This document shows, in pieces, positions 3,684 through 58,036 of a stretch of 64,000 bases of DNA. Under the pieces are notes generated by a model. It saw only the letters and a program-made list of their open reading frames with translations, was not told where the DNA came from and ran no database searches. The translations under genes and the position numbers were made by a program. Within the stretch, counting starts at the first letter, position 1, and each line of letters opens with the position of its first letter. This DNA comes from a virus, in IMG/VR virus record IMGVR_UViG_3300045256_000567; one strand, 5' to 3'.

Positions 3684-3986
3684 TTGTTTTTTTGCAAACT
3701 GTTCTATAATAAAGTAGTGGAAAAACCAATAAAAGTTTTTTATATAGATAGTATAATAAGCAACAAAAAAAGAATAAAATATGTTGCTTTAGAAGGTCTT
3801 TGTGCTGATATAGAAAATGAATATGTAATAAAGTGCAGGGATGATATAGAAAGCATAATGAATTATAAAGATCATGTAATATCAAGCCCATTTACTCCAG
3901 ATAAAACAATTTTAGAGTTTTTAAAAAAATTAAAAATTTTGAGAGAAGGGTTTGATGATAAAGAAATAATTGAAAAATTTATTTAA
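3684..3986 (+). CDS. Hypothetical protein (start uncertain)
   Basis: 100-aa ORF filling the gap before the terminase genes. Confidence 0.5.
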   Translation: MFFCKLFYNKVVEKPIKVFYIDSIISNKKRIKYVALEGLCADIENEYVIKCRDDIESIMNYKDHVISSPFTPDKTILEFLKKLKILREGFDDKEIIEKFI

Positions 3987-13310: not shown

Positions 13311-14876
13311 CTACTCCGAAATCTTTTTCTTAGATTTATAGTTCCTATAAATTAACTCAAATTCATTTTGATCTAAGTCGTATGCTGATTTTACGTACTC
13401 TACAAGCTCCTTTTTCTTTTCGCTAATTTGATATGGACTTCCTTTAAAATCAAGGAATTCTTGCATTCTTCTCTCTAGATCATTTACTTTAGACTTATTT
13501 GAAATAATAGATTTCACTTTTTGTTCAAAATTTTGGTCCATTAACCCTATTTCGGGATGAGAAGAATTTACTCCTACCTTAAATGATTTTGTAGTAGGAA
13601 TATTTTTTACTTCTTCTTGTAAAGATCCTAGACTTTTTGTTACGTTAGAAACTTCCTTAGAAACAAATTCTTTTACTTCATTTAATAAAGCAGATTTTAG
13701 TGATTCAAATTTTTCATCAAGACTATTTGTATTATTATAATTTTTTGCTGATTCCAGTTGATATTCAATAAGATCAACAGCACTCTTTAATGTTTTTTCT
13801 ATAGAAAAAAGATGAGATTCTATTTTTTCCATCCTGTTTAATACAGATTTTAATTCTTCGGTACCTACAGAAGGTGTTTCTTCAATTTCTTCTGTTTCTT
13901 GTTTTTCTGGTCCTCTATTTAATACATCATTTAACTTTTCTTCAATAAAATCTAGTTTGTCCAGAATATAATTAAACATTACTTTTTCTTCTTCAGATTT
14001 TTCTAAGTCTTCTTCAACTTCAGTTTCTTCTTTATTTTCCATTTCATCTTCTGGTTTTTGATCCATATTTTCTAGTTCTCTATTTTCATTGTTTTCTTCT
14101 TCTGGAGATTCGTCAGATAGATCTAAACTTAATTTATCTTTTTCATCGAGGTTTTCTTCTTTATTTTTTAGTCTGTCCTTTAATTTTTCTTCCATGTTTT
14201 TATCCTCCAACGCTTTTTCTATAGTATTATATAAACTTTTTAAGATTTTTACATAAGTATTTATATTTATTGGTTGACCAGTAACAGACACCTCATAAAG
14301 TCTCATTTTTGGTGGTACATTTACATATGAATTACCAATTACTTTTGTAGTAGGTTTCCCCATAGGAATTGCCCCTATAGACAAACCTATTTTATTAAAA
14401 AATCTATTATCATCGTTTGTTAAATGCTTATAAACTTTTTGAGCCAATTCATGATTTTTATCTAAAAGTATCCAAACGTAAAGTTTATTTTCATGAATTT
14501 CTGCGGCTATAGGTTTACCTATTGGAACGTCTATATCAAGGTGCTTGTTTTTATCGCCAGCATGTTTGTATCCATGCTCATAAAAAATTTTTCCATTTTC
14601 TACAAACTCTCTTAAAGAATCTCCAAAAGCATATTGCATATCAAGTATTGAATCATTTACTAAATCAACATCAGGGGTAGAAGCTGTACCAAAAAGAATC
14701 CAATCTCCAGGAATTACACTAATTTTATCGTTTTTTACAAAAATGTCTCCTTTTATTGGTTTTATTTCTGGAGTAACATTGTTATATGAATTTTCTGTAA
14801 CGTTATTTTCAGAAGGAAATGATTGTAAAGCTTTAAATGAAGCGTATAAAGGTATATGAACTATGTTATTTTTCAT
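13311..14876 (-). CDS. Prohead protease fused to an acidic coiled-coil scaffold
   Basis: GTASTPDVDLVND, IFYEH, PIG, GLSIG and LYEVSVTGQPIN are HK97-type protease motifs; E/K-rich C-terminal half; directly upstream of the capsid gene. Confidence 0.85.
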   Translation of the reverse strand: MKNNIVHIPLYASFKALQSFPSENNVTENSYNNVTPEIKPIKGDIFVKNDKISVIPGDWILFGTASTPDVDLVNDSILDMQYAFGDSLREFVENGKIFYEHGYKHAGDKNKHLDIDVPIGKPIAAEIHENKLYVWILLDKNHELAQKVYKHLTNDDNRFFNKIGLSIGAIPMGKPTTKVIGNSYVNVPPKMRLYEVSVTGQPININTYVKILKSLYNTIEKALEDKNMEEKLKDRLKNKEENLDEKDKLSLDLSDESPEEENNENRELENMDQKPEDEMENKEETEVEEDLEKSEEEKVMFNYILDKLDFIEEKLNDVLNRGPEKQETEEIEETPSVGTEELKSVLNRMEKIESHLFSIEKTLKSAVDLIEYQLESAKNYNNTNSLDEKFESLKSALLNEVKEFVSKEVSNVTKSLGSLQEEVKNIPTTKSFKVGVNSSHPEIGLMDQNFEQKVKSIISNKSKVNDLERRMQEFLDFKGSPYQISEKKKELVEYVKSAYDLDQNEFELIYRNYKSKKKISE

Positions 14877-14892
14877 ATTATATATAAATTAT

Positions 14893-14915
14893 AACACACG
14901 TTTGCAGAAAACCTA
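14893..14915 (+). mobile_element. IS200/IS605 left-end scar overlapping the protease promoter (TGTTATAAT on the minus strand)
   Basis: TTAT|AACACACGTTTGCAGAAAACCTA matches the left ends at 16213, 54074 and 58036 up to the first 4 nt of the hairpin. Confidence 0.7.
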
Positions 14916-14935
14916 TGTATTTTAAAAAGAAATTT

Positions 14936-15292
14936 TTAGTCTTCTTTTAAATCCTTAAAAAAGTTCGGAAGATTATTAAACAAATCAATTAAGGGATTAT
15001 TTTTGTCTAAAAATCCTTCTAATGATAAATTACCATTAAAAGAAGATAAAGATGTAATACCAAAAGAAATTCTTGTACTTAAGGTTTCATCAAAACCATA
15101 AGTTACAACAGTAACTGTTTTAGAACAATCTCTTATGACACTAAACTGTCTATTGATAACTGACATTATTGCAATATTCCCAAGAGGAGAATCACTATTT
15201 AATAAAGTAGTTATTCCATATAAAGGAACTGTTGGATAATAATTGTTAAAAAATGATACATTTATAGCTGGCATTTTAGGCGTATGGTGCAA
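14936..15292 (-). CDS. Hypothetical protein (start possibly at the second Met, MPAINV)
   Basis: 118-aa ORF within the structural operon. Confidence 0.55.
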   Translation of the reverse strand: MHHTPKMPAINVSFFNNYYPTVPLYGITTLLNSDSPLGNIAIMSVINRQFSVIRDCSKTVTVVTYGFDETLSTRISFGITSLSSFNGNLSLEGFLDKNNPLIDLFNNLPNFFKDLKED

Positions 15293-16196
15293 ATGTGAAA
15301 TTTAGAAGTACTCTTTTTGTTGGAGCGTCCTCACTTATATATCTAAATAATAAAAATGGATAATACGTTTGGTTTCTAAATGGTGGGACATTGTTATATT
15401 GTGGTTTTAAATTGACAGGGCCATTATTTTCACTTACCGAAGTTATGCTTGTTTGACCATAATTGATTAAATTTTGTACAGCCAAAACAAAATTTCCAGT
15501 AGTGGGGTCTATATTATCCATAAAATCATTTGTATTATTTGATTGAAGAACAGAAAATCTATATTTAATAATTTGATTAAAAAATCCCAACTGATTTGAA
15601 TATGTTGGATTATTTGTAAGAAACATAGTATTGTAGGAGTTAGAGGTACCAGCTATAGCATTTAAATATGCTGGTTTAGATGGATCATTAATTACGGTTT
15701 GGTGTATTATAGGTGCTGCAATAAAAATTCCATAATCTGGTGTACACCTTGAAGTATCAACAGAAAAAATTGGATTTGAAAGTATAAAATTGTTTTCGTT
15801 ATCTACGTTTGGATCTATTACTGTTGTATTAACAAAATACAATACTATAAAATCTATGTAATATCTTTTTCCATTAATTATATAAGGCCCATATCCATTA
15901 CATGATATGTTATCTGGAGAGGTTAAGCATGCAGAACTTCCTACATATAGATTCGAATTATTAAATTGCTTTATAAATTCCAAAAATTTTATCTTATATG
16001 ATGTTGTATCTTTATAGCCTATTAATTGAACATTTACTTTTTTTGAAGGATCTGGAAGTCCAATACTATTTAATTCATTTACATACGCCCATTCATAATT
16101 TGGATTTAATTGAGATGTTGTATTTATTATTATAGACCCCATTGGATCTATTACCGTATTTTGTCCATAAAATAGTGAAAATGTTTTGTCTGGCAT
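15276..16196 (-). CDS. Hypothetical virion structural protein
   Basis: 306 aa, N/P/T-rich, in the structural cluster. Confidence 0.6.
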   Translation of the reverse strand: MPDKTFSLFYGQNTVIDPMGSIIINTTSQLNPNYEWAYVNELNSIGLPDPSKKVNVQLIGYKDTTSYKIKFLEFIKQFNNSNLYVGSSACLTSPDNISCNGYGPYIINGKRYYIDFIVLYFVNTTVIDPNVDNENNFILSNPIFSVDTSRCTPDYGIFIAAPIIHQTVINDPSKPAYLNAIAGTSNSYNTMFLTNNPTYSNQLGFFNQIIKYRFSVLQSNNTNDFMDNIDPTTGNFVLAVQNLINYGQTSITSVSENNGPVNLKPQYNNVPPFRNQTYYPFLLFRYISEDAPTKRVLLNFTFAPYA

Positions 16197-16212
16197 ATTC
16201 TAAAACAATTAT

Positions 16213-16409
16213 AGCACAGTTTGCAGAAAGCCTACACCTTTATGTGTAGGATGAATGCAAACAAATTTGGATACGTACCTATACCTGCACCAAATGCAAC
16301 ACAACCCTTCATCGGGATATTGCAGCAGCACAAAATATCTTGGCTAAGGCTCTGACAAAGTCTTCGCTTCTTGCGAGAAGCCCAATTCTTTAGAATTGGG
16401 AGTCGTCAC
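16213..16409 (+). mobile_element. Non-autonomous IS605-family miniature element: left end + 3' tip of tnpB/omegaRNA + right end
   Basis: Follows TTAT. LE hairpin CCTACAC-CTTTAT-GTGTAGG. The interior translates as IWIRTYTCTKCNTTLHRDIAAAQNILAKAL (TnpB second CxxC plus RuvC-III). RE is GAAG-CCCAATTC-TTTA-GAATTGGG-AGTCG-TCAC. Confidence 0.9.
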
Positions 16410-16410
16410 A

Positions 16411-18459
16411 TCACATGGCGCTTAAAGAAAATTTAATATTAAAATTATTTTGAGTCTCTTTATTATTTAACAAAATAAGAAGTATGTATGTAAGATATGC
16501 ATTTGTATTTAAATTTCTTATAGCTAAGCTTATAGTTGTAGAATTTGTTGAAAAGAAGTATAAATTTTCAATTTTACTTGATAAAAGTTTCATGTAGGTG
16601 TGTATATAATTTAAATAATTTGTTTTAGTAGATAAATTTGGATAAATAATAATATTCCCATATTGATTTTGTACTGCTCTAAAAATTCTAGAATCTATCT
16701 CTAAAGTCGAATTATTACTAAGGTTTGCAGTTATATATGGATATGGAAATGCGGCGACTACATTAGAACCATTTAATAAAATTTTGTTATTTATATTAGT
16801 CGGTGCAGATGAAGTAGTAAATTGTACTATATATTTTCCCTTTAAATAATCTATTACCATTGATTGATTAGTCAAACCAAATTGATTAAAAAGTGAACTT
16901 AAGTTAATGTTAAAAAGGGTATTAGTTGCAAAACTGTTCCAAAAACCGTTAATAAAAATCTTATTAAACAAAGCGTTGATATCTGTAGAAGAATTTACTA
17001 AGGATAAGGTATTTGCATTGAAATTATAAAAAACTTCGGATATATATCTTGCTAAATTTGAAAAATATGCATATAATAAAGGTGTTATAGATGTAATGTT
17101 ATTAATAGATATAAACATATCTTTACCAGATAGAGAATAAAAGATTGTAGATATAGTAAGGGTCAATATGAAATCTAATTCGTAAGAATCATCAAGATTA
17201 TTAAAGTTATTTATTTTTTCGGTCGCATCAACATAATAAGTAATATGAGAATCTAACCAATTCTCTAAAGAAGTTAGTGATGTGGGTATTGTAGATATAT
17301 ACCCTTTATTTTGTAGTTTATATACAAACTGTACAAAAAATTTAGAAATTAAATAAAAAGAAACGAAATATTTATTTTTTTCATCTTCAGAAATATTTGC
17401 GCCATAAAAAACTCCGTTTGCTAGATCTATATTTTGTTTAATTACGTTGTTAGAAAAGCCATTTGAAAGAAGACTATAAAGTAAATTTGATATTTTTTCA
17501 ACATTATTATATGCAGTTGTAGCATAATATCCAAGATTAATTAAATATGGCTTTGTAATTTCATATATGACAAAATACAAAAGATTTTTAAAATATTCTT
17601 TTGAATTTATTACTCCAAGTACTGAATTTGTCTGTAAATTTAATGTATTAAATATTATATTTGTAGAAAAGAACGGAAAAGTACCAGAAGATACTGTAGA
17701 AATTAGACAATTAGAAAGTATATTTTTTTCATAGTTTAAAACAAATGAGTTTAAAGATCCGTTTGCTTCTTTTTCTAATCCATTCGCGACTAACTGAAGA
17801 AGGAGAAGATTTTTTATATCCCAATTATTATTTTGTAATGAACCTGGATTAATTAAGAATAAAACATCCCCAAGTGCATAAGACTCATAAAACTTCGACA
17901 AATAAAAATTATAATCGCTTTCTAAAATAGAGACAAAAGATTTAGAAGAATCGTATAAAATTTTTTCTATTCTGTAAAATTTATTTCTTGAAAAATTCTC
18001 TGAAGATTCTACTTCTTGATAATAAACAGAAAAATTTATATTAGCTTCTTCTTGTGGCTTTATTGAATACGGAACCAAAAGAAATTTATTTTGTAATTCA
18101 TCGCTATTGCTAAAATTTATTATTAAATCTATATCATCAGAAAAAATAACTCCAATATATGAATCTCCAGAAATAGCATTATTATCAGAGGAGAACACTA
18201 CGGATGAGCTATTGTTTACGGTTGCATTTATATAAACAGGCTTATTATCTGATGGGAATATAGAAGGAGACATGCTAACTTTAAAGACTAAAGTTTTTGG
18301 GTATCCGGGAGAATTAATTGGCAAATTATTTTTTATGTTAATAGTAAAGTTGAGATTTGAAGTATCTTCGTCTAATGGAACAAAATATTGATAATATTCA
18401 GTATCAAAATCAAGTTCTTCGGTTACCCCATTTTCTGTTATTAATTTAAGTCTAAACAT
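16411..18459 (-). CDS. Hypothetical structural protein
   Basis: 682-aa ORF overlapping the previous gene in the baseplate-region operon. Confidence 0.7.
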   Translation of the reverse strand: MFRLKLITENGVTEELDFDTEYYQYFVPLDEDTSNLNFTINIKNNLPINSPGYPKTLVFKVSMSPSIFPSDNKPVYINATVNNSSSVVFSSDNNAISGDSYIGVIFSDDIDLIINFSNSDELQNKFLLVPYSIKPQEEANINFSVYYQEVESSENFSRNKFYRIEKILYDSSKSFVSILESDYNFYLSKFYESYALGDVLFLINPGSLQNNNWDIKNLLLLQLVANGLEKEANGSLNSFVLNYEKNILSNCLISTVSSGTFPFFSTNIIFNTLNLQTNSVLGVINSKEYFKNLLYFVIYEITKPYLINLGYYATTAYNNVEKISNLLYSLLSNGFSNNVIKQNIDLANGVFYGANISEDEKNKYFVSFYLISKFFVQFVYKLQNKGYISTIPTSLTSLENWLDSHITYYVDATEKINNFNNLDDSYELDFILTLTISTIFYSLSGKDMFISINNITSITPLLYAYFSNLARYISEVFYNFNANTLSLVNSSTDINALFNKIFINGFWNSFATNTLFNINLSSLFNQFGLTNQSMVIDYLKGKYIVQFTTSSAPTNINNKILLNGSNVVAAFPYPYITANLSNNSTLEIDSRIFRAVQNQYGNIIIYPNLSTKTNYLNYIHTYMKLLSSKIENLYFFSTNSTTISLAIRNLNTNAYLTYILLILLNNKETQNNFNIKFSLSAM

Positions 18460-20737
18460 ATATTTTGCTAAAAAGTAGGGATTGGGTGTCTATATTAGAT
18501 ACTGAAAATAAAATTGGATTGAAATTACCTGTAAAGTTCGCAATAGATAGAGTATTAGATAAATTATTATCTATTTTTATTAAGATATCTAAAGCATTTG
18601 TGGTCGTATTTTGAGAAAAATTAAGTAAAACAAAATGTAAAGAACTGGAGGAAAGAGTAAATGTAACAGAATTTGCTGGAGTAGATGCATCTGTGACTGT
18701 AAACGTTCCAGAAGAAAAAGATATATTAACAAGAGATGTGTAAGTAGGTAATAAATTTAATTTTCCATCAATAGAAATATTTGCATTAAAACTTTTTTCA
18801 CTAAAAATAAACGATAAAAAGTTAGAAAATTCAAAAACATTACCAGCGGAAGAGTTTGATGGTACTTCATATAATCCATACCCAACATCATTAGTAGAAT
18901 GAAGAGAAGGTTCTAAAGAAGTTAATACGTTGTTAATTGTGTCTTTATTGTATAGAGAAATTTTTGGGTATCTGTTTATAAAATCTTTTTTAGGTCCATT
19001 TATCGCATTTAAGGTCCAGGGTGATACTGTGGCGTTTAGGAAAAACTCAAAAGTTTCAACAGGTGAATCTACAATAAAATCTACAAAAAAATTATTTTTT
19101 GCTTTTAGGTAAGCAATAGATGCATTATTGGGAGAATTATACACATAAGGACTACTAGACGTATTCAATGTTAAATCTAAAAAAGACAGATCACTATATA
19201 GATTTGGTGTTACCGGTAGTAGATTACACAAAATATTTGTATTTGGTGGAGTACAGAATGGAGTAAGTTCATATAAATCATCAATAAACTTTATATCGTA
19301 ATAGTTTTTAAAGTCAATATTAGTTGAAGATACAGTCTTTTTCCACGCATAACGAGATGACGTTATAAGAATACTTTTATTAATTATGTCTTGAGGAAGT
19401 AAACCAAATAAACTTTCTAAGTTATAACTAAAGATAAATGTAGTTTCTTTCAATAAACCAAATATATAAATTAAATAATCCTTAATATCTTTAAAATTAA
19501 CAACAGTAGTACCATCAACTTTTAAATATGAAGATTCTATTTGGAATCCTAAATTACAAAAGGTTTCTAATTTTTCATTTAATAAATTATTGTACAACGC
19601 ATTCATTAAATTAGATAGAGAGAATGAAGAAGTATCTATATATTTGTTAAATACAATTAGAATAACCGGCTTTGGAAGATTTTTTCTAGTTGAATTTAAA
19701 TAAGAATTTTTAACAGTTTTTAAAAACGATTTTATATTTGTTATATTATTCAGGAAATTTTGAAAATCAATTGGGACTATAAAGTAATCATATCCTTTAT
19801 CTTTTATACTTTGAACTGTATATATGAAGTTTGTTATATTTTGTGTAGAATTATTGATAAATAAATTAATGAATGCTTGGCTTATTATAAATGCGGCATT
19901 ATTATCAGTTTTAGAGGAAAACAGATGTATTGGAATATTGTCTTCTATTGCGCTTAATCTAGAATTTATATCACTTAAAGTAGTAGATAGATTAGGTGGA
20001 ATATTATTTATTTGAGATGTTAGTAAAGAAATGCTACTATTTATTGGATTAAGTGCGTTATTTAAATCATTTTGAGTTATATACCCACCGTTGGCAATTC
20101 CAGTAATCGCATTTTCTAAATTATATAACCTTTGCAATATGGGAAGTCTGCTAGGATTGTTAGGATCATCAGGAGAAAAACTGCTTCCAAATATTTCAAA
20201 ATAAGATGGCGATATTTTATTTATGTTTAAATTATTTACATTGTTAATTAACCCGTTTAATTGAGATAACAAGTTATTTATATTTGTTTGTATGGTAGTA
20301 ATTGTATTTGTAGATGAAATAGCAGAATCTATATCAGAAGATGTATATGATATACCAGACCAAAGAACTTTATTAGTTGGGTCAATGAAAGACGAAAAAC
20401 TAAAAAGCTTAACCCAAGCTGCGTTTGTGTTTAATATTGCTGGGTATGTATTTGGGTTAGTTACTACGCTATAATCAATGGAGTTTGCATTTACTAATCC
20501 AGATGGTAAAGAAATTAGATTCTTCCAGTTTGTTATATCAATTTTGAATTGAGACAGACCTTGAAGGTTTTCTAGAGATGTAGTATTTATATATGAAGAA
20601 GTTCCTAAAATTCTTTTTATTACAGTTCTAATTATATTTATATCATCAGAAATAGTTTGAGAAGGAAACGGTAAAGTTAAGTTGTCATTTACCGGTACTT
20701 GATATACTTCAATTGGTTCTAAGTGTCCGATTGGCAT
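18452..20737 (-). CDS. Putative tail fibre/baseplate protein with coiled-coil segment
   Basis: 761 aa; heptad region (IQTNINNLLSQLNGL..LSDINSRLSAIE) and a beta-rich C-terminus. Confidence 0.55.
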   Translation of the reverse strand: MPIGHLEPIEVYQVPVNDNLTLPFPSQTISDDINIIRTVIKRILGTSSYINTTSLENLQGLSQFKIDITNWKNLISLPSGLVNANSIDYSVVTNPNTYPAILNTNAAWVKLFSFSSFIDPTNKVLWSGISYTSSDIDSAISSTNTITTIQTNINNLLSQLNGLINNVNNLNINKISPSYFEIFGSSFSPDDPNNPSRLPILQRLYNLENAITGIANGGYITQNDLNNALNPINSSISLLTSQINNIPPNLSTTLSDINSRLSAIEDNIPIHLFSSKTDNNAAFIISQAFINLFINNSTQNITNFIYTVQSIKDKGYDYFIVPIDFQNFLNNITNIKSFLKTVKNSYLNSTRKNLPKPVILIVFNKYIDTSSFSLSNLMNALYNNLLNEKLETFCNLGFQIESSYLKVDGTTVVNFKDIKDYLIYIFGLLKETTFIFSYNLESLFGLLPQDIINKSILITSSRYAWKKTVSSTNIDFKNYYDIKFIDDLYELTPFCTPPNTNILCNLLPVTPNLYSDLSFLDLTLNTSSSPYVYNSPNNASIAYLKAKNNFFVDFIVDSPVETFEFFLNATVSPWTLNAINGPKKDFINRYPKISLYNKDTINNVLTSLEPSLHSTNDVGYGLYEVPSNSSAGNVFEFSNFLSFIFSEKSFNANISIDGKLNLLPTYTSLVNISFSSGTFTVTDASTPANSVTFTLSSSSLHFVLLNFSQNTTTNALDILIKIDNNLSNTLSIANFTGNFNPILFSVSNIDTQSLLFSKIYV

Positions 20738-20755
20738 ATGCTACCTAAAAAAATT

Positions 20756-22675
20756 TTAATATACTTCAAAGAATATAGTAATATAATCTATATTAACAAA
20801 AATATTTGTTGTTGCACCAACAAACCTTAATATAAAATATGGACTTGGACCAGAGTTAATATTATAATTATAAGAAAGCAAAGAATTGTTGTTAAACAAA
20901 TTATTAAATCCAAAACTAAACATTTGTTGTGTAGATGTTGATGCTGGAGAAGAAATTAACGAAGTACTTGAAAAATTTACACCATCAAGCCATTCTAGAT
21001 CTAATGTAAATGGTGTATCAGAAATGTTGCTACCAGTTGTTATATATACACGAAGTTTCATGGATATTGATTTAATAGAAGTAATTCTTCCATTTTCGGT
21101 GATTATAGGAAGAATAGGAATTACTATATAATTATTTGTACTTCCACTTTGTAAAAGTGTTTTGTATATTGATACAGTTCTCCATTTAGGCGGTGGATTT
21201 ATAGCTTGTGCAATATTAATCATGTTTTGATATGGAGTAAGAGCATTCGAAGAGGGGGAGAAGTTAATGGTATTTTGATTAACAACATTTATTTGACCAA
21301 GTAATACATAATCTCCAGTAACCGATTGAGTATTAGGAACAATAAGTAAATGTGGCCTTATATTAAGAATAGATGCCTGTGATGTAACTTTAGATAATGA
21401 ATTGTAAAAAGTTTGACCAAGTTCAGGAGAATCTATGTTTTTTACATATAAGTTATATATTTGAGAAGAAGTTGGATTTGGTATTTTTAATGTACCGCCA
21501 AATTTTCCAGCAAATGTAATATTATTTGGCATATCTAAATTTACACTTATTGGTAATGGTGTAGTTAATACATAATCAAAAGCATAAACAGAAGAATCCG
21601 GTCCAGGCAAAAATCCAGAATTAATATTTATTGTTCCATCTAAACTTATTTGTAAAACATCTACGGCCAATAAAGAACTTAGATTTGATAAATTTTTTAG
21701 TGTTCCGCTTGTTTTATCTAGTGTGAGAACGTTTATATAGCTTAAAGTTTCTGAACTCAAATTTTCAAAAGGTAAAGAGAACTGAGAAATAGTTACATTA
21801 TTAGAAGAAAACTGTTTATTAGAAAGTTTTTCCAAAAAGTAGAAAGAAACTTTATCCCCATCATTTATTAACAAGCTTGATAAATATAAATATATTTTAT
21901 TTGGAGAATCATCGCTTACTTTGTATAATATTTGAGTATTATAAACAGGTACATCCTTTGGAATATGATAATAAGAAGTGTTTACATTATTGTTTACAGT
22001 TGATTCAATTTCAAGAACAAGATCTTTGTTTGTAACAGAGCAGTTCATCAATGGAAACTCTATGTAACAATTAGATGGGTCGTTATTTACGCAGAAATTA
22101 CTTTTAAAATCACTCCACAATATCTTAGTTACTATATCTTTATTAAATTTTCCGTTTATGTCCTTTGGCAATGGACTTATTTTTCCTTGTCTTATCTTAT
22201 TAAAAGATACGTCTGTATAATTTAAATTTTGATTAATATTATAATCAGATTTAATTTGTGGGTGACCATTTACGTATACAAATGAAAATAAACCACTAGA
22301 ATAAGAAACTACATTTTCTGATGATAATATGGAATTTGGAACTTGTATCGGATTTGAAACAGAACCATTTAAAGGTACGTTGTCGTCGTATATAATGCTA
22401 TAGGTTAAACATTCATTATAATCATGCTTCGTAATTCCCTCTTTATCTAAGTATATAAATTTTTTATTATTACCCAAAGAAACATCAAGGAAATAATCAT
22501 TTCCTATAACATTTATATTAAAATTAAATATATTTGTTATTGGATCGTCACCAAAATATCCCTCTCCAAATACTCTTCTTATAGAATCCAATAAATCATC
22601 TGTATTTATGTTTGCTAAATTTAAAACATCAGATGCCCTTAAAAATTTTAGTTCTGTAGGATTAAACTTTTTCAT
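20756..22675 (-). CDS. Putative baseplate/tail-associated structural protein
   Basis: 639 aa, coupled to the baseplate J-like gene; FLRASDVLNL N-terminus; beta-rich. Confidence 0.55.
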   Translation of the reverse strand: MKKFNPTELKFLRASDVLNLANINTDDLLDSIRRVFGEGYFGDDPITNIFNFNINVIGNDYFLDVSLGNNKKFIYLDKEGITKHDYNECLTYSIIYDDNVPLNGSVSNPIQVPNSILSSENVVSYSSGLFSFVYVNGHPQIKSDYNINQNLNYTDVSFNKIRQGKISPLPKDINGKFNKDIVTKILWSDFKSNFCVNNDPSNCYIEFPLMNCSVTNKDLVLEIESTVNNNVNTSYYHIPKDVPVYNTQILYKVSDDSPNKIYLYLSSLLINDGDKVSFYFLEKLSNKQFSSNNVTISQFSLPFENLSSETLSYINVLTLDKTSGTLKNLSNLSSLLAVDVLQISLDGTININSGFLPGPDSSVYAFDYVLTTPLPISVNLDMPNNITFAGKFGGTLKIPNPTSSQIYNLYVKNIDSPELGQTFYNSLSKVTSQASILNIRPHLLIVPNTQSVTGDYVLLGQINVVNQNTINFSPSSNALTPYQNMINIAQAINPPPKWRTVSIYKTLLQSGSTNNYIVIPILPIITENGRITSIKSISMKLRVYITTGSNISDTPFTLDLEWLDGVNFSSTSLISSPASTSTQQMFSFGFNNLFNNNSLLSYNYNINSGPSPYFILRFVGATTNIFVNIDYITIFFEVY

Positions 22676-24735
22676 TTCCTCCGCACCCCAATGTTGTACT
22701 TAGAGTAGAAATCTTTATTTATTATATTAGAATAAGAAATTCTGCAAACTTCTTTTTCTTTAGAAAAAGAATCCAGATCTTTGTACTGTATATATTGCAC
22801 ATCATTTAGTAAAGTATATAATAACTTTATTTCGTAAGAATTGCTTGAGCAGAATCCTGTTGTATCGTTTATTAAATTCTCACATAATTCGATATCATTG
22901 TCTGATGGTATAGGAAGAGTAAGGAATTTTATTTTTAAATAATTTGCTTCTACTGGATCAATACTTTCTACTGCTCTTAAACTCAAGCCTATTTTTGTAA
23001 AAGTGTTTAAATAATTTGATGCATTATTAAATGCTACTGAAGAAACCTCCTTAAAACATAGGTCTAAAGGCTTATTTTTACAATTAGTTTTAATTTCATT
23101 AATAAAATTAGTGTAATAATACCTATTTACACTATCTCCTAAAATATCCCCGTAAATATTGTTCAATATTTTTTCAACTATAGTTTTTTCCTGATAACGT
23201 GGTGCTTGTAAAAATAAATTACCGCCCGTTAAAGAAAATTTAGATAGGTAAGATATGTAGTTGTTGTAAGAATTAAAACCATTTTTAGAATATACGTATA
23301 ATGCCAATTTTCCTTGGTTAACAATATCTAAATATTCTGAATATGTAAAATATTGGGAGGGGTCAGAACACTTAGTAGGAATTTCGCTCAAACTGTTTGG
23401 AACAACATCATTATAGTAAGTCATGCATATAAAATTTTTATAAGTATTTTTATATAATTCAAATAATTCTGGGGTAAGGGAAAATCCCAAATATATATTA
23501 TTTACATTAAATTCATTGCTTAATATTTGCCAAATTTTTGAATAACTAATTTCTTCTCCAAGATCAAGTTTATTTAAATTATCTCCTAAGTATTGTTTTA
23601 GTCTGTTAATATCATTGTTAGATGATATGCTATCTGTTTCAAGAATTACATTAAATAAGTTGTTTTTCGCTAATCTTATGTTAATTATTGTTCCTGCCGG
23701 TTTAACGTCTTCAAGTTGCGACAAAAGCAAAGGTAAAAAGTTAGATATTGAACTAGAAGAAGTTATATATAAATCCAGTATTCCAGGATTATTTGTAGTG
23801 TATAATTGCGCTGAACTATTAGGAAGAAGTGTATATATTTTTGTTTGTATTGCTTGCAGAGTGCCTTTTGTTAAAGATCCTAAAAAGCTCCAATACCTTT
23901 GCCTATATGATTCATCGCTTTCCTCATCTATGCCTCCATTAATTTCAGAGCTATAGGCTAAAGTAAGCATCCCTCCTTCTACTTTTGCTATGGAATCAAT
24001 ATCTACAACAAGCTCGTTTGTAGGTAAGGAAGTATTTAATACATAATCAAAATTATTTTCTACTAAAAATTTAAAGTTTCCAGCATTTACAAAAGTATTA
24101 ACAACTCCACTACTAATATTTTTATTGCTTCCAGTATCAATAGAAATTAAAGGAAATACTAAATATTTGATATAAGAATTTGGATTTTGCTGTAATATAG
24201 ATATTGTATAGTTAGCTATCAATTCTGCTATTTTTTGATTTCCAGTGTCTGGATTTACTTCAAAAAATGATTCATCTGTTGCTTGTAAAAGTTTTATTGG
24301 AGGAAGTAATGCATAATCAAATATTCCATTAGTTGTAGATACTTTTATTGTAGAAGCTAAAGGTGGAGTATAAAGAACTCCAGAGTTCACGTCAAGTCTA
24401 CTAAATACTAACTTTGATAAAGAACTTGAAGTTATAGAATCAGATATATTAAAGCTTACAGGCATTAGGGTTACATATCCTAATGCTCTTGTTCCTTTTA
24501 TTCTTTCAATTTTAGATAATCCATAAATTAATTGATCTAAGTAAGATCCTGTAGCAGTATGCACATAACTATTATTTTTTATTTCATCTATAGATGAATA
24601 TACCTCTTCTAAAGCAGTTGAAACACTATAAAACATTGATTTTATAACGCTTCCATTTCTTAGAGCGTTAATTTTATTTTGTATAGTTAAAAATAAACTC
24701 TCTATAGAAGAAAGTATTTCAAATCTATCTGGCAC
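22672..24735 (-). CDS. Baseplate J-like wedge protein
   Basis: GSVIKSMF, TATGSYLDQL...IERIKGTRALG, GGIDEESDESYRQR, KGTLQAI and KPAGT motifs. Confidence 0.88.
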   Translation of the reverse strand: MPDRFEILSSIESLFLTIQNKINALRNGSVIKSMFYSVSTALEEVYSSIDEIKNNSYVHTATGSYLDQLIYGLSKIERIKGTRALGYVTLMPVSFNISDSITSSSLSKLVFSRLDVNSGVLYTPPLASTIKVSTTNGIFDYALLPPIKLLQATDESFFEVNPDTGNQKIAELIANYTISILQQNPNSYIKYLVFPLISIDTGSNKNISSGVVNTFVNAGNFKFLVENNFDYVLNTSLPTNELVVDIDSIAKVEGGMLTLAYSSEINGGIDEESDESYRQRYWSFLGSLTKGTLQAIQTKIYTLLPNSSAQLYTTNNPGILDLYITSSSSISNFLPLLLSQLEDVKPAGTIINIRLAKNNLFNVILETDSISSNNDINRLKQYLGDNLNKLDLGEEISYSKIWQILSNEFNVNNIYLGFSLTPELFELYKNTYKNFICMTYYNDVVPNSLSEIPTKCSDPSQYFTYSEYLDIVNQGKLALYVYSKNGFNSYNNYISYLSKFSLTGGNLFLQAPRYQEKTIVEKILNNIYGDILGDSVNRYYYTNFINEIKTNCKNKPLDLCFKEVSSVAFNNASNYLNTFTKIGLSLRAVESIDPVEANYLKIKFLTLPIPSDNDIELCENLINDTTGFCSSNSYEIKLLYTLLNDVQYIQYKDLDSFSKEKEVCRISYSNIINKDFYSKYNIGVRRK

Positions 24736-24746
24736 AAATAGATTAT

Positions 24747-24768
24747 AGCATAGCTTGCAGAAAACCTA
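24747..24768 (+). mobile_element. IS200/IS605 left-end scar forming the baseplate-J promoter (TGCTATAAT, 6 nt before GTG)
   Basis: TTAT|AGCATAGCTTGCAGAAAACCTA. Its last CTA is also the TAG stop codon of ORF 24766..25266. Confidence 0.75.
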
Positions 24769-25266
24769 ACTTTTGCAAATATTATAGGATCTATCTCCAG
24801 AGTCAAAAGAATTTACAGTTAAAGAATTAGAAAAAGTTCTACTTAAAGCATAAGCCTCTATTTCGTCAAATAAAAAATTAACTTTTATCACATACGGAAA
24901 ATTACTTAAATATTTTACAAAATTATCTATCGTATAACTTTTTATATAAAAATTTACTTCGTTATCTGTAATATTTTTTAAACTATATATAATTTTATTT
25001 TGATCAAAATTTAAAAAATATAATTTGTTTACTATTTCATTTTTTGCTGATAAAACATCTACAGATAAATTTTTAAATTTTAAAAATAAATACTCATTAC
25101 TAGAGTAATATTGATATGCAGAAGAGAAAAATGATATTTCAGTATTACCAGAATTCACGCTATATGAAGTAAATATTAAAAAATTTGAATAAGAAGTAGG
25201 AAGTTGTATATTCTGGTCTACAGAAAAATTTACAACTCTTCCTTGTGAGCTAGATATTGTAAACAT
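24766..25266 (-). CDS. Hypothetical protein
   Basis: 166-aa ORF in the operon. Confidence 0.65.
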   Translation of the reverse strand: MFTISSSQGRVVNFSVDQNIQLPTSYSNFLIFTSYSVNSGNTEISFFSSAYQYYSSNEYLFLKFKNLSVDVLSAKNEIVNKLYFLNFDQNKIIYSLKNITDNEVNFYIKSYTIDNFVKYLSNFPYVIKVNFLFDEIEAYALSRTFSNSLTVNSFDSGDRSYNICKS

Positions 25267-50841: not shown

Positions 50842-51726
50842 TTATATCTTTTTAATGAATTTATCCAGTTTGTCAAAAAATGAATATAGTTTTGGATATT
50901 GTTCTAAAAATTCGCGGTGAAAGTAAAAAAATACAAAAGACTCTACAAAATCATCTTTAGGAGAAAGGACAGTATTGATAGAAAATCTTTCATTATCATC
51001 ATAATGATACCATGCGTTTGAAGTTTTTATATTATACAATTCTCCAGATTTTATATATCTATATGTGCTTTGATTTTCAGGGATTTCTTTTGTCCACCCT
51101 CTGACTTTTAAAAATTCAGAAATATATTCAGGAAAAACCTTTAAGATTCTACTAAAGGAGATTTCAGCTATTGTTTCTGCTGTAGCTACCGATGCTACTG
51201 AAATTCCTGGAGTTACATTTGGAACCATTCTAACTACAGGAACAGTAATGTATATATAGTAAGGTTGAAAAATATTTATTTCAAAAAACGTTCCTTCCAT
51301 TTTGTGAGAAATCACATACAAATCGTAGTTCTGTTGATCTATTTTGGCGGTTTGGTACCTTAGTATCCAATTAAGAGATTTTATTTTTAGTATTTTATAC
51401 AAATTTTCAGGAAACTGTTTCATCACGGCCCTTATGTTGAAAAGGGCATAATAAGGTGCGTTTTCATCTACTACAGGAATTGCGAAATCTAACAAAGTAC
51501 TTTTGTTGTATCTTTTTACTTTTTTTTCTGAAACATTTCCTTCTTCATCATATATGTCAACAGTAGGATCTAAAAAGAGTCCTAAAGAGTGCGCTTCTGC
51601 TAATCGAAGTGCAGAAATGGAAGAATCTGAGGGAGCATATTGACCAACTTCATAACGTGAAGTGGAAAAAGGAATGGGGTAGTTTGGGGGTATTACATAG
51701 TAGTCTGGATCACCAATTCGCGCCAT
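50842..51726 (-). CDS. Hypothetical protein, possibly a degenerate zincin-like fold
   Basis: C-terminal SPKDDFVESFVFFYFHREFLEQYPKLYSFF resembles the E(D/Y)FAESF..Y...P..Y tail of lethal-factor-like zincins, but there is no HExxH. Confidence 0.55.
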   Translation of the reverse strand: MARIGDPDYYVIPPNYPIPFSTSRYEVGQYAPSDSSISALRLAEAHSLGLFLDPTVDIYDEEGNVSEKKVKRYNKSTLLDFAIPVVDENAPYYALFNIRAVMKQFPENLYKILKIKSLNWILRYQTAKIDQQNYDLYVISHKMEGTFFEINIFQPYYIYITVPVVRMVPNVTPGISVASVATAETIAEISFSRILKVFPEYISEFLKVRGWTKEIPENQSTYRYIKSGELYNIKTSNAWYHYDDNERFSINTVLSPKDDFVESFVFFYFHREFLEQYPKLYSFFDKLDKFIKKI

Positions 51727-51784: not shown

Positions 51785-51810
51785 GTGACGACTCCCAATT
51801 CTAAAGAATT
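51785..51810 (-). mobile_element. Truncated IS605 right end
   Basis: AATTCTTTAGAATTGGGAGTCGTCAC is identical to the right ends at 16409 and 53417; the GAAGCCC foot is lost. Confidence 0.85.
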
Positions 51811-51836
51811 TCAAGAAATACTATTTATTTTTTGCA

Positions 51837-52358
51837 TCACGAAACTTTTTCAAAAATTAGCTGCTTTGTAAGTATTTGGTATGTGAACCAGCTTGTGTTA
51901 AACCAAACATTTTTCTCGGTTTTAGAAAAGTTAACTCTTCTATCGAGAATCAATACTTCAATTCCAAACTTTCTAAAAAGTTCTCCTCTCTCGATTCCCT
52001 CCAAAGCAGTGATTGGAAGCAAGAGCGCGAAAGGTTTTTGGTATTCATAGCATTTTTTTAAAAATTCAGTTTTCAGAGAGTAGGGCGGATTTGTTATTAT
52101 TACGTCAAACTCAAAATTCGGCGAATCGTTAAAAAAATCAAATCCATCTTTGATATGTGTAGAAATCACTTTAAAATCAAACTCTTTAAGAACTTTCACA
52201 ATTTCACTTTTGCCGAAATCAGTCGGTTCCCAATAGATTTTTTCTTTGGGCAGATATTGGAGAATCGGTAATATAGCTTCCCTTGGCGTGTAGTATTCAT
52301 CGTTTTTTTCGTTTTTAACGTAACTTATAAGAGAATTTTTCAAAAAGACCACCCCCAA
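51837..52358 (-). CDS. Small N6-adenine methyltransferase-like protein (phage type)
   Basis: NDEYYTP, GFDFF and ITNPPYS catalytic motif IV. Confidence 0.8.
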   Translation of the reverse strand: MGVVFLKNSLISYVKNEKNDEYYTPREAILPILQYLPKEKIYWEPTDFGKSEIVKVLKEFDFKVISTHIKDGFDFFNDSPNFEFDVIITNPPYSLKTEFLKKCYEYQKPFALLLPITALEGIERGELFRKFGIEVLILDRRVNFSKTEKNVWFNTSWFTYQILTKQLIFEKVS

Positions 52359-52364
52359 AAAACA

Positions 52365-53330
52365 TTAATCGGTAGCAGAAAAAAGCGTATGTTCACTTTT
52401 AACATTGTAGTTGATCCAAATACTTTCAACTCTTTGTGCAAAAGAATGTACAGCCCCCTTTCCTTGTAGTTTACTTGATCTTGTTCTACCTGCTGCATGG
52501 CTTACAGTAGTTTTGTCAAACCTTGTCCATCCTTCGTTTTCTAACTTATCATAAATTTTATTTTTGTATCCTGAAAGCATTACTTTTCCTTTTACGTTTA
52601 ATAGCAAATCTACTAGTTTTTCGTGATAGTCATCTGATAATTCATACTTGTATTCTCCTTGTTTTCTTGTGGAATTTACATAAGGTGGATCAATATAAAA
52701 AAATGTTTTTGAAGAGTCCCAATACTCTATTGCTTTTAAAGCGTCTACTTTATCAATTTGTACTCTAGATAGGCGTTCATGCCACCAATAAAGCATTTTT
52801 AAATGACTGCGCCAATTATTTACATTAGATGCCATCCCTCGGTTTATTTCAGATAAAATACGCCCCCAATCACCTTCTGTACTTGCTTTACCTCCAAAAC
52901 CTTGATTTTGTGTTACGAAAAATGCCCAAGCTTTATCAATATCGTTATAATTTTCAGGGCATTCTAGAATTTTTAAAGCGCATACAAATTCCGATCTTGA
53001 ATATGGTGTCCACAATAGCTTGTGTAGAAGATCGTCAAATGTATCTTTGTTCTGTAACACACGAAAAATATTTACAATTCTGTCGTCTATGTCGTTCAGC
53101 ACTTCTACTTTGTAAGGTTTTTCTAAATTCCAGAACAAGTTTGCCGCTCCTGCAAATGGTTCTACATATATTTCAACATCATCATTAAAGGGTATGTAGT
53201 TTAGTATAAATTTCACCAAATTTCCTTTCCCCCCAAACCATCTAAAAGGCGCCATAATTCTGTTGGGTTTTTCTATGCTGTCAAGAATTTCTTTTGCTAA
53301 TAGAGATTTGAATGCTAAAGTTTTGTCCAA
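52365..53330 (-). CDS. Dam/D12-class DNA adenine methyltransferase (start revised to TTG 53330)
   Basis: PFRWFGGKG, YVEPFAGAA, EVLNDID, FYIDPPY, VMLSGY; TGATATACT lies 8 nt upstream of the TTG. Confidence 0.9.
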   Translation of the reverse strand: MDKTLAFKSLLAKEILDSIEKPNRIMAPFRWFGGKGNLVKFILNYIPFNDDVEIYVEPFAGAANLFWNLEKPYKVEVLNDIDDRIVNIFRVLQNKDTFDDLLHKLLWTPYSRSEFVCALKILECPENYNDIDKAWAFFVTQNQGFGGKASTEGDWGRILSEINRGMASNVNNWRSHLKMLYWWHERLSRVQIDKVDALKAIEYWDSSKTFFYIDPPYVNSTRKQGEYKYELSDDYHEKLVDLLLNVKGKVMLSGYKNKIYDKLENEGWTRFDKTTVSHAAGRTRSSKLQGKGAVHSFAQRVESIWINYNVKSEHTLFSATD

Positions 53331-53416
53331 TTTTCTAAAGTATATCACAAAAATTTTTCTATGGAGTGTTTTTCTCACCAAACCCACCACAGCAAGGGCC
53401 ACTACTACCAAACCCA

Positions 53417-53535
53417 GTGACGACTCCCAATTCTAAAGAATTGGGCTTCTCGCAAGAAGCGAAGACTTTGTCAGAGCCTTAGCCAAGATATTTTGTTCTG
53501 CTGCGATATTCCGATGAAGGGTTGTATTGCATTTG
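53417..53535 (-). mobile_element. IS605 tnpB 3' remnant/omegaRNA scaffold + intact right end
   Basis: Nearly identical to 16291-16409. It translates as KCNTTLHRNIAAEQNILAKAL (RuvC-III D to N) and ends GGGAGTCGTCAC. Confidence 0.9.
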
Positions 53536-53695
53536 TCATGTGGGAAATTACATGTATCCCCGCTTTGAAAAGCGGGGAATTATAGCTCCCCCACACCCCC
53601 TCAATTTTTTAACCGTACAACACACCAAGCAATGGCGTTTACTTTTGAAAGTCAAAAAAATAAAAACCTCCCAATAGGGAGGTTACTTTGGGAGG

Positions 53696-53848
53696 TTACT
53701 TTACTCGAAACATCCAAGTATCTTCCTCTAAAGTACCGAAAAAGAACCAAGTTTCCTTTCCATCCGTGACATGATGCATGTCGCTGTATCGCCATTTATC
53801 AGCTGACTTGATATCCTTCCAACGCTTAGCTTCGATGTACCACTTCAT
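53696..53848 (-). CDS. Small early protein (50 aa, Trp-rich; not in ORF track)
   Basis: MKWYIEAKRWKDIKSADKWRYSDMHHVTDGKETWFFFGTLEEDTWMFRVK*. AAGGAGG RBS, own promoter, and terminator at 53665-53684. Confidence 0.8.
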   Translation of the reverse strand: MKWYIEAKRWKDIKSADKWRYSDMHHVTDGKETWFFFGTLEEDTWMFRVK

Positions 53849-53892
53849 TATTACCTCCTTTACACAGAAAGGACATCCCTTCCTGTGACTTC

Positions 53893-53921
53893 ATAATACC
53901 ACAATACAACAACCTTGTCAA
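53893..53921 (-). promoter_or_regulatory. Sigma70-type early promoter
   Basis: TTGACA-17 nt-TATTAT with TG extension. Confidence 0.85.
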
Positions 53922-54001
53922 TACCCTTACGACCAATCGGCGGCTAGCGGGTATTGCGAGTATTGCTGTAGCGAGTAGGATGTGTTAGCGAGTTCATTAT
54001 G

Positions 54002-54074
54002 ATTATACCATATACAGGAAGTTTAGTTGCATTCATCCTACACCTAAAGGTGTAGGTTTTCTGCAAACTGTTCT
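54002..54074 (-). mobile_element. IS605 left end with internal TGGTATAAT promoter
   Basis: TTAT|AGAACAGTTTGCAGAAAA-CCTACACC-TTTA-GGTGTAGG-ATGAATGCAA. Confidence 0.85.
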
Positions 54075-54162
54075 ATAAGATTACCGATCCTCCCTGTGAA
54101 TGAGGCGTTTACTTTTGAAAATAGCAAGAAAAAAAAGAAACCCCCTTATTAGGGGGTAAAAT

Positions 54163-54369
54163 TCACTTTACCTGGAAGACAGCGGTGTTCAGGTATGGCA
54201 GGCCGAAACCTCCCCACACTTCTACGTATTCTCCTTCCTTGATCTTTACGATCAAGAAGGAGTAATCTTCCTGAACACCCTCTGCTTTCAAAATTTCTTG
54301 AATGTTTACTGAATCTTTCTCCAGAAAATAGCTATCATCCTGGAAATCTTTGACCCTAGGTATTATCAT
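54163..54369 (-). CDS. Small early protein (68 aa)
   Basis: AAGGAGG RBS, promoter at 54411-54439, terminator at 54140-54157. Confidence 0.85.
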   Translation of the reverse strand: MIIPRVKDFQDDSYFLEKDSVNIQEILKAEGVQEDYSFLIVKIKEGEYVEVWGGFGLPYLNTAVFQVK

Positions 54370-54410
54370 GATTACCTCCTTCCAGGAAGGGTCACCCTTC
54401 CTGTGACTTC

Positions 54411-54439
54411 ATAATACCACAATACAACAATCTTGTCAA
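54411..54439 (-). promoter_or_regulatory. Sigma70-type early promoter
   Basis: TTGACA-17-TATTAT. Confidence 0.85.
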
Positions 54440-54628
54440 TAACATTACAACCAATCAGCAGTTAGCATGTATTGTTGATGCTAATGTAGCGAGTAAAGTT
54501 TGCTAGCGAGTGCATTAGAAGAAACGCACCCATAAACGCAAGACCAAAATACGCAAAATCACTAATACCCCTTCCAAAAAGAGGGGCAAAGCGTTTACTT
54601 TTGAAAGGCGGAAAAAATAAAAATCCCC

Positions 54629-54769
54629 CTATTCGGGGGATTTTTCGGATTCCTCGGATTCTTTGTATTTAGAATCCTTGTATCCTTCTTGCTTCAATTC
54701 CTTGATAATTTCCTTAACCTCTGCGATAGAAATTCCGGATTCCATGATTTCGTAAAACAGGTCTTTCAT
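54629..54769 (-). CDS. Small acidic early protein (46 aa; not in ORF track)
   Basis: MKDLFYEIMESGISIAEVKEIIKELKQEGYKDSKYKESEESEKSPE*. AAGGAGG RBS; the stop codon lies in the terminator hairpin at 54619-54645. Confidence 0.8.
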   Translation of the reverse strand: MKDLFYEIMESGISIAEVKEIIKELKQEGYKDSKYKESEESEKSPE

Positions 54770-54810
54770 TTTTACCTCCTTCACAAGAAGACTATTCTTC
54801 CTGTAATTTC

Positions 54811-54839
54811 ATATTACCACAATACAGCAATACTGTCAA
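54811..54839 (-). promoter_or_regulatory. Sigma70-type early promoter
   Basis: TTGACA-17-TAATAT. Confidence 0.8.
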
Positions 54840-55028
54840 TACCCACAACACACACACACAATCAACGGCTAGCGTGTATTGCAAGTATTGCTGTAGCGAG
54901 TGGAGTGTGTTAGCGAGTGCATTAGGGTAAACTCACTCATAAACGCAGGACCAAGCAACATAAAATCGCTAATACCCCCCTGAGCGGGAAGCGTTTACTT
55001 TTAAAAACAGCAAGAAAAAAATCCCCCC

Positions 55029-55217
55029 CTATTTAGGGGGATCTTGATTGAAATAATCGCTATCTAAATACCTAATAACAACGTCAGGGTACTCCTCCGA
55101 AACCTTCTTTAGAACATCATCAATCCGTTCAGCAGAAAGGACGCACTTATAACGGAACCCCTCAATTCTCTCCAGAATTGACCAGCCATCTGAACAGGGA
55201 ACTAGATAAAGATTCAT
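55029..55217 (-). CDS. Small early protein (62 aa; start revised to ATG 55217)
   Basis: AAGGAGG precedes MNLYLVPCSDGW. The longer track ORF runs through the promoter. Confidence 0.8.
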   Translation of the reverse strand: MNLYLVPCSDGWSILERIEGFRYKCVLSAERIDDVLKKVSEEYPDVVIRYLDSDYFNQDPPK

Positions 55218-55257
55218 TACTTCCTCCTTACAGGAAGGCTGTCCTTCCTGTGACTTA

Positions 55258-55286
55258 ATAATACAACAATTCAGCAATGTTGTCAA
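55258..55286 (-). promoter_or_regulatory. Sigma70-type early promoter
   Basis: TTGACA-17-TATTAT. Confidence 0.85.
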
Positions 55287-55499
55287 TACCCTTACGACCA
55301 ATCGGCGGCTAGCGTGTATTGTTTATGCTCATTTAGCGAGTAAAGTTTGCTAGCGAGTGCATTAGAATAAACGCACCAATAAACGCAACGCAAAGAATAC
55401 CAAAATACAAAATCCCCCTATTGAACAGAGGGGGGGTGAAAAGCGTTTACTTTTGAAAGCCGATAAACAAATAATCCCCCCAATTCGGGGGGATTTTGT

Positions 55500-55703
55500 C
55501 TAATCCTCGATCCTCTGCAAAACCTCCTTACCAGTTTTAGGGTACTTGAACACCTTATACCGGATCTTGTTGTACTCTACAACCTTACCGGTATCCTGGG
55601 GTCCACTTGAAGCGCGACAATTAGGGCAAAGATCAGGAACCCGACCGACGCCTTTGTACTCAAAAATCGCGCCGCACTTCTTGCACTTCACTAGTTTTTC
55701 CAT
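55500..55703 (-). CDS. Small zinc-ribbon early protein, copy 1
   Basis: CKKC...CPNC; promoter TTGACA-17-TATTAT at 55738-55766; terminator at 55473-55495. Confidence 0.85.
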   Translation of the reverse strand: MEKLVKCKKCGAIFEYKGVGRVPDLCPNCRASSGPQDTGKVVEYNKIRYKVFKYPKTGKEVLQRIED

Positions 55704-55911
55704 AACAACCCCCTTTGTAGGTTCTTCCTACACCTTTATAATAGCATAATAAGTCATAGTTGTCAATAGGTATAATTTAGGTATACTTGAGGCATACTTG
55801 AGCGCGTATGCATTTACAAAAGGTTGATAACCTAGAAACTAAAAAATGAGTAAACGCTTGGGGTACACAGATTTACAATACCCCCTGTATTAAAAAATAC
55901 CCCCTTTTAAA

Positions 55912-57792: not shown

Positions 57793-58036
57793 GTGACGAC
57801 TCCTAATTCTAAAGAATTAGGCTTCTCGCATTTAGCGAAGGCTCCGTCCAAGCCATTATCGGTATTTTCTTATTTTCCCGATAATTACCTTGAATCTTAT
57901 GATTCAAGTACCTACCAGCATTTTCAGCTTTGTAGGATTTGGTGTGCTTATCTTGCACAAGTTCATTATACCATAGAATTTCAATTTTTGCATTCATCCT
58001 ACGCCTAAAGGCGTAGGTTTTCTGCAAATCAATGTT
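57793..58036 (-). mobile_element. Non-autonomous IS605-family miniature element (second subtype) with internal promoter and omegaRNA-like scaffold
   Basis: TTAT|AACATTGATTTGCAGAAAA-CCTACGCC-TTTA-GGCGTAGG; TGGTATAAT; four internal hairpins; RE GAAG-CCTAATTC-TTTA-GAATTAGG-AGTCG-TCAC. Confidence 0.9.

Follow-up and report, generated by a model that had tools for sequence, protein, structure and literature searches.

In IS608 of Helicobacter pylori, a single-strand transposon of the IS200/IS605 family, guide and cleavage sequences are paired with one another position by position, the right-end guide being GAAT. Miniature, PATE-like elements of the IS200/IS605 type, which consist only of the ends and a guide-RNA region, have reportedly been described for Geobacillus stearothermophilus. 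Other insertion sequences, among them IS1, IS2 and IS10, make hybrid or outward promoters by supplying a -35 hexamer or a full promoter, usually with the result that silent genes are activated. For the phage phiYS40, -10 boxes directly before open reading frames (ORFs) and leaderless middle and late mRNAs are said to have been reported by Sevostyanova et al. in 2007. The present analysis concerns a stretch of viral DNA of 64,000 nucleotides (nt), IMG/VR record IMGVR_UViG_3300045256_000567 (referred to below, at its full length, as the window), in which a short motif recurs. To judge from its sequence, this motif is the left end of an IS608-like single-strand transposon of the IS200/IS605 family. 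Miniatures and left-end remnants of this family appear to be genuinely embedded in predicted -10-only promoters ahead of virion genes of a phage, promoters that seem to have been in place before the transposon arrived.

Transposon ends in the window

A complete IS605 is not present in the window, which harbors three non-autonomous derivatives (copies A, B and C), one right-end fragment (D) and three hairpin-less left-end stubs:

16213..16409, plus strand: copy A, a 197-nt non-autonomous derivative comprising a left end with an extended hairpin, a remnant of the TnpB C-terminus and a right end with a hairpin
14893..14915, plus strand: stub 1, 23 nt, hairpin-less, upstream of the head maturation protease gene 13311..14876
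24747..24768, plus strand: stub 2, 22 nt, hairpin-less, upstream of the baseplate gene 22672..24735
3686..3705, minus strand: stub 3, 20 nt, degenerate, upstream of gene 3717..3986; newly found here
53417..54074, minus strand: copy B, left and right ends of the same family, after TTAT; no gene-proximal -10 box at the site
57793..58036, minus strand: copy C, a gene-less derivative of 244 nt in which the two ends are retained and a TGGTATAAT promoter points inward, after TTAT; no gene-proximal -10 box at the site
51785..51810, minus strand: right-end stub D, 26 nt, half a hairpin followed by the terminal GTCGTCAC; the same letters as at the end of copy B

All six left ends, those of the three copies and of the three stubs, are preceded by TTAT, and each of them starts with A; the junction therefore reads TATAA on the other strand. 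The initial A is followed by (G/A)CA. Copy A, with TTAT at 16209-16212 directly before it, begins with AGCACA and terminates in GTCGTCAC, and the last eight bases are common to copies A, B and C. Terminal inverted repeats are absent, subterminal imperfect palindromes are found at both ends, and the flanks of the full copies do not display a target-site duplication. Both hairpins of copy A (left, -11.6 kcal/mol, z -3.2; right, -10.5 kcal/mol, z -2.6) beat shuffled controls, and their arms are also found in copies B and C. The left cut lies 18-19 nt from the hairpin foot and the right cut 9 nt from its hairpin, the corresponding distances in IS608 being 19 nt and 10 nt (PMC3201880). The guide tetranucleotides are AAAA at the left end (AAAG in copy A) and GAAG at the right end. 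Under the IS608 pairing scheme AAAA fits a TTAT target and GAAG fits a TCAC cut, whereby the AAAG of copy A gives a G-T pair; the equivalent IS608 letters are AAAG, TTAC and TCAA (PMC3201880). A remnant of TnpB, restricted to the last 25-30 codons, is retained in copies A and B; in copy A it represents the zinc-ribbon part and scores 29.8 bits against PF07282, for which the cut-off is 26.3. An Rfam search matched no family. On these sequence features, the membership of the ends in the family is considered well supported.

In the alignment, the left ends of copies B and C contain a 14-mer that recurs without change in stubs 1 and 2. At up to two mismatches, seven matches to it occur in the window against 1.04 expected, a number reached by none of 100 shuffles. 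In stubs 1 and 2 the similarity extends 4 nt into the 8-nt hairpin stem, through CCTA, and ends there. Stub 3 differs from the 14-mer by three changes and matches the left end of copy B at 20 of 21 nt (E value 2.5e-4). The 8-9 nt beside the box differ in every copy, in mobile copies and stubs alike. The last 3 nt of stub 2 constitute the TAG stop codon of gene 24766..25266. A short TGCAAA match had suggested that the 3' half of the outer stem of the left end is also preserved in stub 2; this candidate was rejected, as these bases are a conserved Cys codon of the upstream gene.

A first-pass annotation of this DNA had described copy A and stubs 1 and 2, and direct extraction confirmed their coordinates and letters. 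Its statement that one and the same left-end stub, cut at the same hairpin position, lies at the protease and baseplate promoters agrees with the alignment, and its observations that stub 2 provides the stop codon of the upstream gene and that AAAA/TTAT and GAAG/TCAC obey the IS608 guide rule, with AAAG in copy A, hold as well. The identification as IS605 is justified for the ends, which are truly of the IS200/IS605 type, but not for the element as a whole, since all copies are deleted, gene-less derivatives. Likewise, both stubs listed there are real, whereas the third left-end stub (3686-3705) and the right-end stub (51785-51810) had been missed.

Between its two ends, copy B contains a complete early-type unit, the TnpB C-terminal remnant and a further hairpin whose type differs. 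The unit is made up of a TTGACA-type promoter, a 5' hairpin, the 50-amino-acid gene 53696..53848 and the terminator, and the hairpin of the other type is located near 53558-53577; copy B can be read either as a cargo-carrying miniature or as two half elements around a phage gene. The loop of the left hairpin in copy A (16236-16256) contains TTAT, whereas the loops in B and C read TTTAGG. Since TTAT is found in this loop only, a nested insertion site or a TnpB recognition motif would be confined to the A-type hairpin. Right-end stub D is situated 9 nt upstream of a TGCTATAAT box belonging to gene 50842..51726.

Predicted -10 boxes at the junctions and in relatives

A perfect TATAAT, read on the strand of the neighboring gene and 6-11 nt before its start codon, is found at the junction of four of the six left ends:

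16208..16216, minus strand: predicted extended -10 rebuilt at copy A, TGCTATAAT, 11 nt before the ATG at 16196
14888-14896, minus strand: junction of stub 1, TGTTATAAT, 11 nt before the protease ATG
24742-24750, minus strand: junction of stub 2, TGCTATAAT, 6 nt before the baseplate GTG
3705-3710, plus strand: junction of stub 3, TATAAT, 6 nt, then GTG at 3717

The initial T of every hexamer is complementary to the base with which the element begins. The bases that follow in the element give a TG at the extended -10 position at three of the four promoter sites. Copy A lies 1 nt past the stop codon of gene 16411..18459 and within the -10 box of gene 15276..16196. In the rebuilt box, the T at -12 and the TG are transposon bases and ATAAT is phage DNA. 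When copy A is removed in silico, the minus strand reads TGATATAAT, and with the copy in place it reads TGCTATAAT; the TG in the reconstructed TGATATAAT is part of the TGA stop codon of the upstream gene. This bears out the earlier claim of an extended -10 for the gene starting at 16196 both before and after insertion. The more general proposal, that the element inserts into -10 boxes and rebuilds them, is supported at the level of the letters by the regenerated TATAAT and by the hexamers of relatives described below. In the entire window, six of the ten TGNTATAAT sites are transposon-associated.

Neither a -35 element nor a Shine-Dalgarno sequence accompanies the four boxes. By eye, the best -35-like hexamer in the conserved 14-mer reaches two of six matches, and a -35 contribution from the 14-mer was rejected on these grounds; as there is no -35-like hexamer in it, a -10-only promoter would not need the 14-mer. 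A scan for two-hexamer sigma-70 promoters found 74 against 89.8 expected, a signal not separable from noise in AT-rich DNA. The occurrence of -10 boxes immediately ahead of ORFs whose mRNAs are leaderless is established in Deinococcus-Thermus (PMC12340547).

For an assessment of placement, a start-proximal box was defined as a hexamer 4-12 nt before a start codon, and sites were classed as intergenic by rough gene calls. The window contains 1680 TTAT sites, 77 of which are intergenic and about ten of which fall within start-proximal hexamers. That four of the six left ends are among the latter corresponds to a binomial P of about 0.003, even if only intergenic insertions are taken to survive. 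Part of this excess is expected; an insertion between co-directional genes without a downstream promoter would be polar, and for this reason only promoter-preserving insertions would persist.

The window phage is, as far as its proteins indicate, a distant phiYS40/TMA-like phage. This assignment follows from the 306-amino-acid product of gene 15276..16196 (YS40_154-like), whose sole phage relatives in a tblastn search are the Thermus phages phiYS40, TMA and YS40_Isch at about 61% identity and whose nearest sequence overall, encoded on the 15-kilobase (kb) IMG/VR contig L131, is only 77% identical. Megablast of the window gave no match, and the PHROG families matched by its structural genes have few members each. 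The comparison of junctions covered phiYS40, TMA, YS40_Isch and IMG/VR contigs including L131, L185, L186, L187 and a complete 157-kb relative. With no mismatch allowed, the 14-mer is absent from phiYS40, TMA and YS40_Isch, where at two mismatches it is about as frequent as a reversed control, and it is absent from the 157-kb relative too. Neither the phage collection nor any of five IMG/VR relatives gave a BLAST match to copy A. One match to the 14-mer with a single mismatch, in L131, lies in the capsid gene and was discarded as a chance coding similarity.

The orthologous genes themselves are informative. At the junction of copy A, the element is missing from L131, phiYS40, L185, L186 and L187, which are distant sequences of at most 77% protein identity and not alleles. 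Before the YS40_154-like gene, the hexamer 11 nt upstream of the ATG is TATAAT in L131, TATATT in phiYS40 and TATACT in L185; in L186 and L187 a TATAAT is found nearby, 7 nt before the start in one and 14 nt before it, together with a Shine-Dalgarno sequence, in the other. The baseplate gene is preceded by TAAAAT, 6 nt and GTG in L186 and by TAAAAT 8 nt before the ATG in phiYS40, in neither case with a stub. The orthologue of the gene starting at 3717, YS40_066 in phiYS40, displays TAAAAT, 6 nt and GTG, and the protease gene of L131 displays TAAAAT, 6 nt and ATG, again both without a stub. Hence, all four genes have at least one element-free relative with a -10-like hexamer near the start, at three of the four with the same spacing as in the window. 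Because the relatives possess such hexamers yet have neither the element nor the 14-mer, the promoters would, as far as distant relatives can show, be older than the insertions, and the motif would be transposon DNA rather than a native element. The first-pass annotation had raised the prospect of relatives without any IS605 that carry the same motif; phiYS40, TMA, YS40_Isch and the 157-kb relative have neither the 14-mer nor the element, and the orthologous junctions carry no stub.

Gene order breaks at stub 1 (window 13311-15292 compared with phiYS40). In the window, as in L131, the protease and capsid genes come directly after a YS40_155-like gene. The genes that come after it in phiYS40 are YS40_156-158, with the protease at a distance of about 75 kb. 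Since L131 shows the new order without the stub, the rearrangement is the older of the two. A different kind of match was encountered in the metagenome contigs L190, L197, L209 and L214 (G+C content about 0.56-0.58), which have an intergenic block in common that contains the 14-mer and then a TATAAT-like box; L144 (Candidatus Acidoferrum) harbors a similar block. This block is unrelated to the phage element and probably represents a conserved promoter or a small RNA locus.

Explanations for the pattern

The pattern is probably best explained by a coincidence between target and promoter, combined with survivorship. The element would insert 3' of TTAT; with an A after it, this tetranucleotide is complementary to TATAA, the core of a -10 hexamer. 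Transcription of middle and late genes in the window phage would depend on -10-only boxes a few bases before the start codon. As intergenic DNA makes up only about 5.7% of the window by rough gene calls, a -10 box would be one of the few landing places that spare the genes. Since the left end begins with A and continues with (G/A)CA, the first T of the hexamer would be restored, along with a TG in most copies. The downstream gene would then most likely still be transcribed, and the insertion would survive. At three sites, later events would have removed everything from the left-end hairpin through beyond the right end, so that immobile stubs of 20-23 nt would remain at roughly -13 to -34 of the promoters. 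The stubs may persist because clean removal is unlikely and their first bases already form part of the box. Both the activity of the rebuilt boxes and the route of stub formation are thus features that we infer from sequence.

The excision of IS200/IS605 elements is seamless (PMC3201880). For this reason the term 'scar', which had earlier been applied to the stubs, is a misnomer; they must stem from deletion or another secondary event. The variation of the linker beside the box fits an independent and, it would seem, recent derivation of the stubs from different copies. That stubs 1 and 2 share their end point suggests a process directed by the hairpin. This point also lies at about -34, the upstream edge of a core promoter, and because it coincides with both the hairpin foot and this edge, mechanism and selection are inseparable here. 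The perfect 14-mer in the same two stubs could reflect selection or recent origin.

Several observations weigh against target coincidence with survivorship. At three of the four sites the hexamer of the relatives is TAAAAT, which does not provide a TTAT on the other strand, and an ancestral target in the window lineage is for this reason an assumption. A true empty-site allele is lacking, since the nearest relative is only 77% identical in protein, and the four boxes are predicted promoters. Copies B and C follow TTAT away from gene-proximal boxes, so that the preference is not absolute. No ORF able to encode TnpA (Y1/HUH transposase) was seen adjoining any copy in the window, where no scan with a TnpA profile was made, and a parent element with a transposase was not found in any collection searched. 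Exact and degenerate left- and right-end patterns gave no match in the genome, virus and metagenome contig collections, and the bare 14-mer is too frequent in IMG/VR to be informative. Finally, stubs 1 and 2 end at the same nucleotide and retain a perfect 14-mer despite the variable 8-9 nt, which neutral decay does not obviously predict.

This last point, together with the start-proximal enrichment beyond the intergenic-only null (P 0.003) and the extended -10 TG supplied by the element at three of four promoter sites, is what an adaptive origin would account for, in which the left end evolved as a promoter-restoring 'safe landing' and the stubs were exapted, with the 14-mer selected as a promoter module or regulator site. 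An identical 14-mer in stubs 1 and 2 and copies B and C, next to 8-9 nt that differ in every copy, would then be the signature of selection. Such an origin nevertheless appears unlikely: with its three changes in stub 3 the 14-mer is not constant everywhere, it contains no -35-like hexamer and occupies a region that -10-only promoters do not need, and copies B and C are located away from gene promoters. Moreover, the linker varies among the mobile copies too, and independent recent origin explains the pattern equally well.

A more specific proposal, which we regard as quite unlikely, is that the 22-nt linker was exapted as a portable late-promoter or operator module of virion operons, or that the end points record hairpin-halted repair synthesis during nuclease-driven homing. 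If either were true, a single-strand transposon would have given rise to viral regulatory DNA by a new route.

It is improbable that the stubs arose through recombinational copying of a block composed of stub and TATAAT, or through repair copying of an occupied allele that was halted at the left-end hairpin. The identical end point at the hairpin foot would be readily explained in this manner, and so would the TAAAAT of relatives where the window has TATAAT, as though the box had arrived with the stub. However, the linker beside the box differs between the stubs at about five of nine positions, and the stubs are therefore no recent copies of one another.

A native origin of the motif, as a promoter or operator element of the phage group that secondarily resembles a transposon, is scarcely credible and largely refuted. 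The motif is fixed at 7-8 nt from TATAAT in all copies, but neither the four complete relatives nor any of the orthologous junctions compared contain it. In three copies it forms one stretch with a hairpin, a TnpB remnant and a matching right end, its AAAA and the flanking TTAT obey the transposase guide rule, and stub-plus-box patterns matched only coding or unrelated sequences in the genome, virus and metagenome collections, none with a hairpin.

Neighboring cassettes and comparison with known systems

Two DNA methyltransferase genes, 51837..52358 (PF13651) and 52365..53411 (PF02086), lie between identical 26-nt right ends (51785-51810 and 53417-53442). The G+C content of 51785-53442 is about 37%, compared with about 27% in the structural region, and the pair has the appearance of a foreign cassette that either came in at a right end or duplicated one. 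The adjacent region 53600-58650 is an array of small early genes, each of which comes with a promoter block that recurs along the array, a hairpin, a terminator with a G/C run and a conserved box, GCGTTTAC, present in eight copies; the repeats of the region form the families D1-D12.

A new mechanism of transposition or regulation is not demonstrated here. The window provides a concrete case in which the target of a transposon is the mirror image of a promoter -10 core, and because of this mirroring, insertion and promoter survival would be coupled in a phage with predicted -10-only, leaderless promoters. It also offers four natural constructs with which the contribution of the bases upstream of -12 could be gauged: a site with the element in place, an empty site that can be reconstructed, and stubs with two different spacings.

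Compared with IS608, the window elements share subterminal hairpins, insertion 3' of a tetranucleotide without duplication, similar distances between hairpins and cuts, and the same guide scheme. Despite these similarities, several differences exist. The window elements target TTAT rather than TTAC and use TCAC rather than TCAA as the right cut; the copies are devoid of tnpA and of an intact tnpB, the left hairpin bears an extra outer stem, and the replicon is a lytic-type jumbo phage. Copies A and C resemble the PATE-like miniatures in that they are gene-less and keep both ends, along with a putative 3' TnpB/guide-RNA region. In contrast to these miniatures, copies in the window have decayed further to hairpin-less stubs on promoter boxes, and copy B carries a phage early gene.

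As in the hybrid promoters formed by insertion sequences, transposon-end DNA gives promoter bases to a neighboring gene. The difference is that the window element would split an existing -10 box and restore its first base and the TG, and in doing so would preserve rather than create predicted expression. With the -10-only leaderless promoters of phiYS40 and Deinococcus-Thermus, the boxes have in common a hexamer 6-11 nt before the start. Unlike those promoters, the four window boxes are chimeric, their upstream part being transposon DNA, and they show how such DNA may become a physical part of viral promoters.

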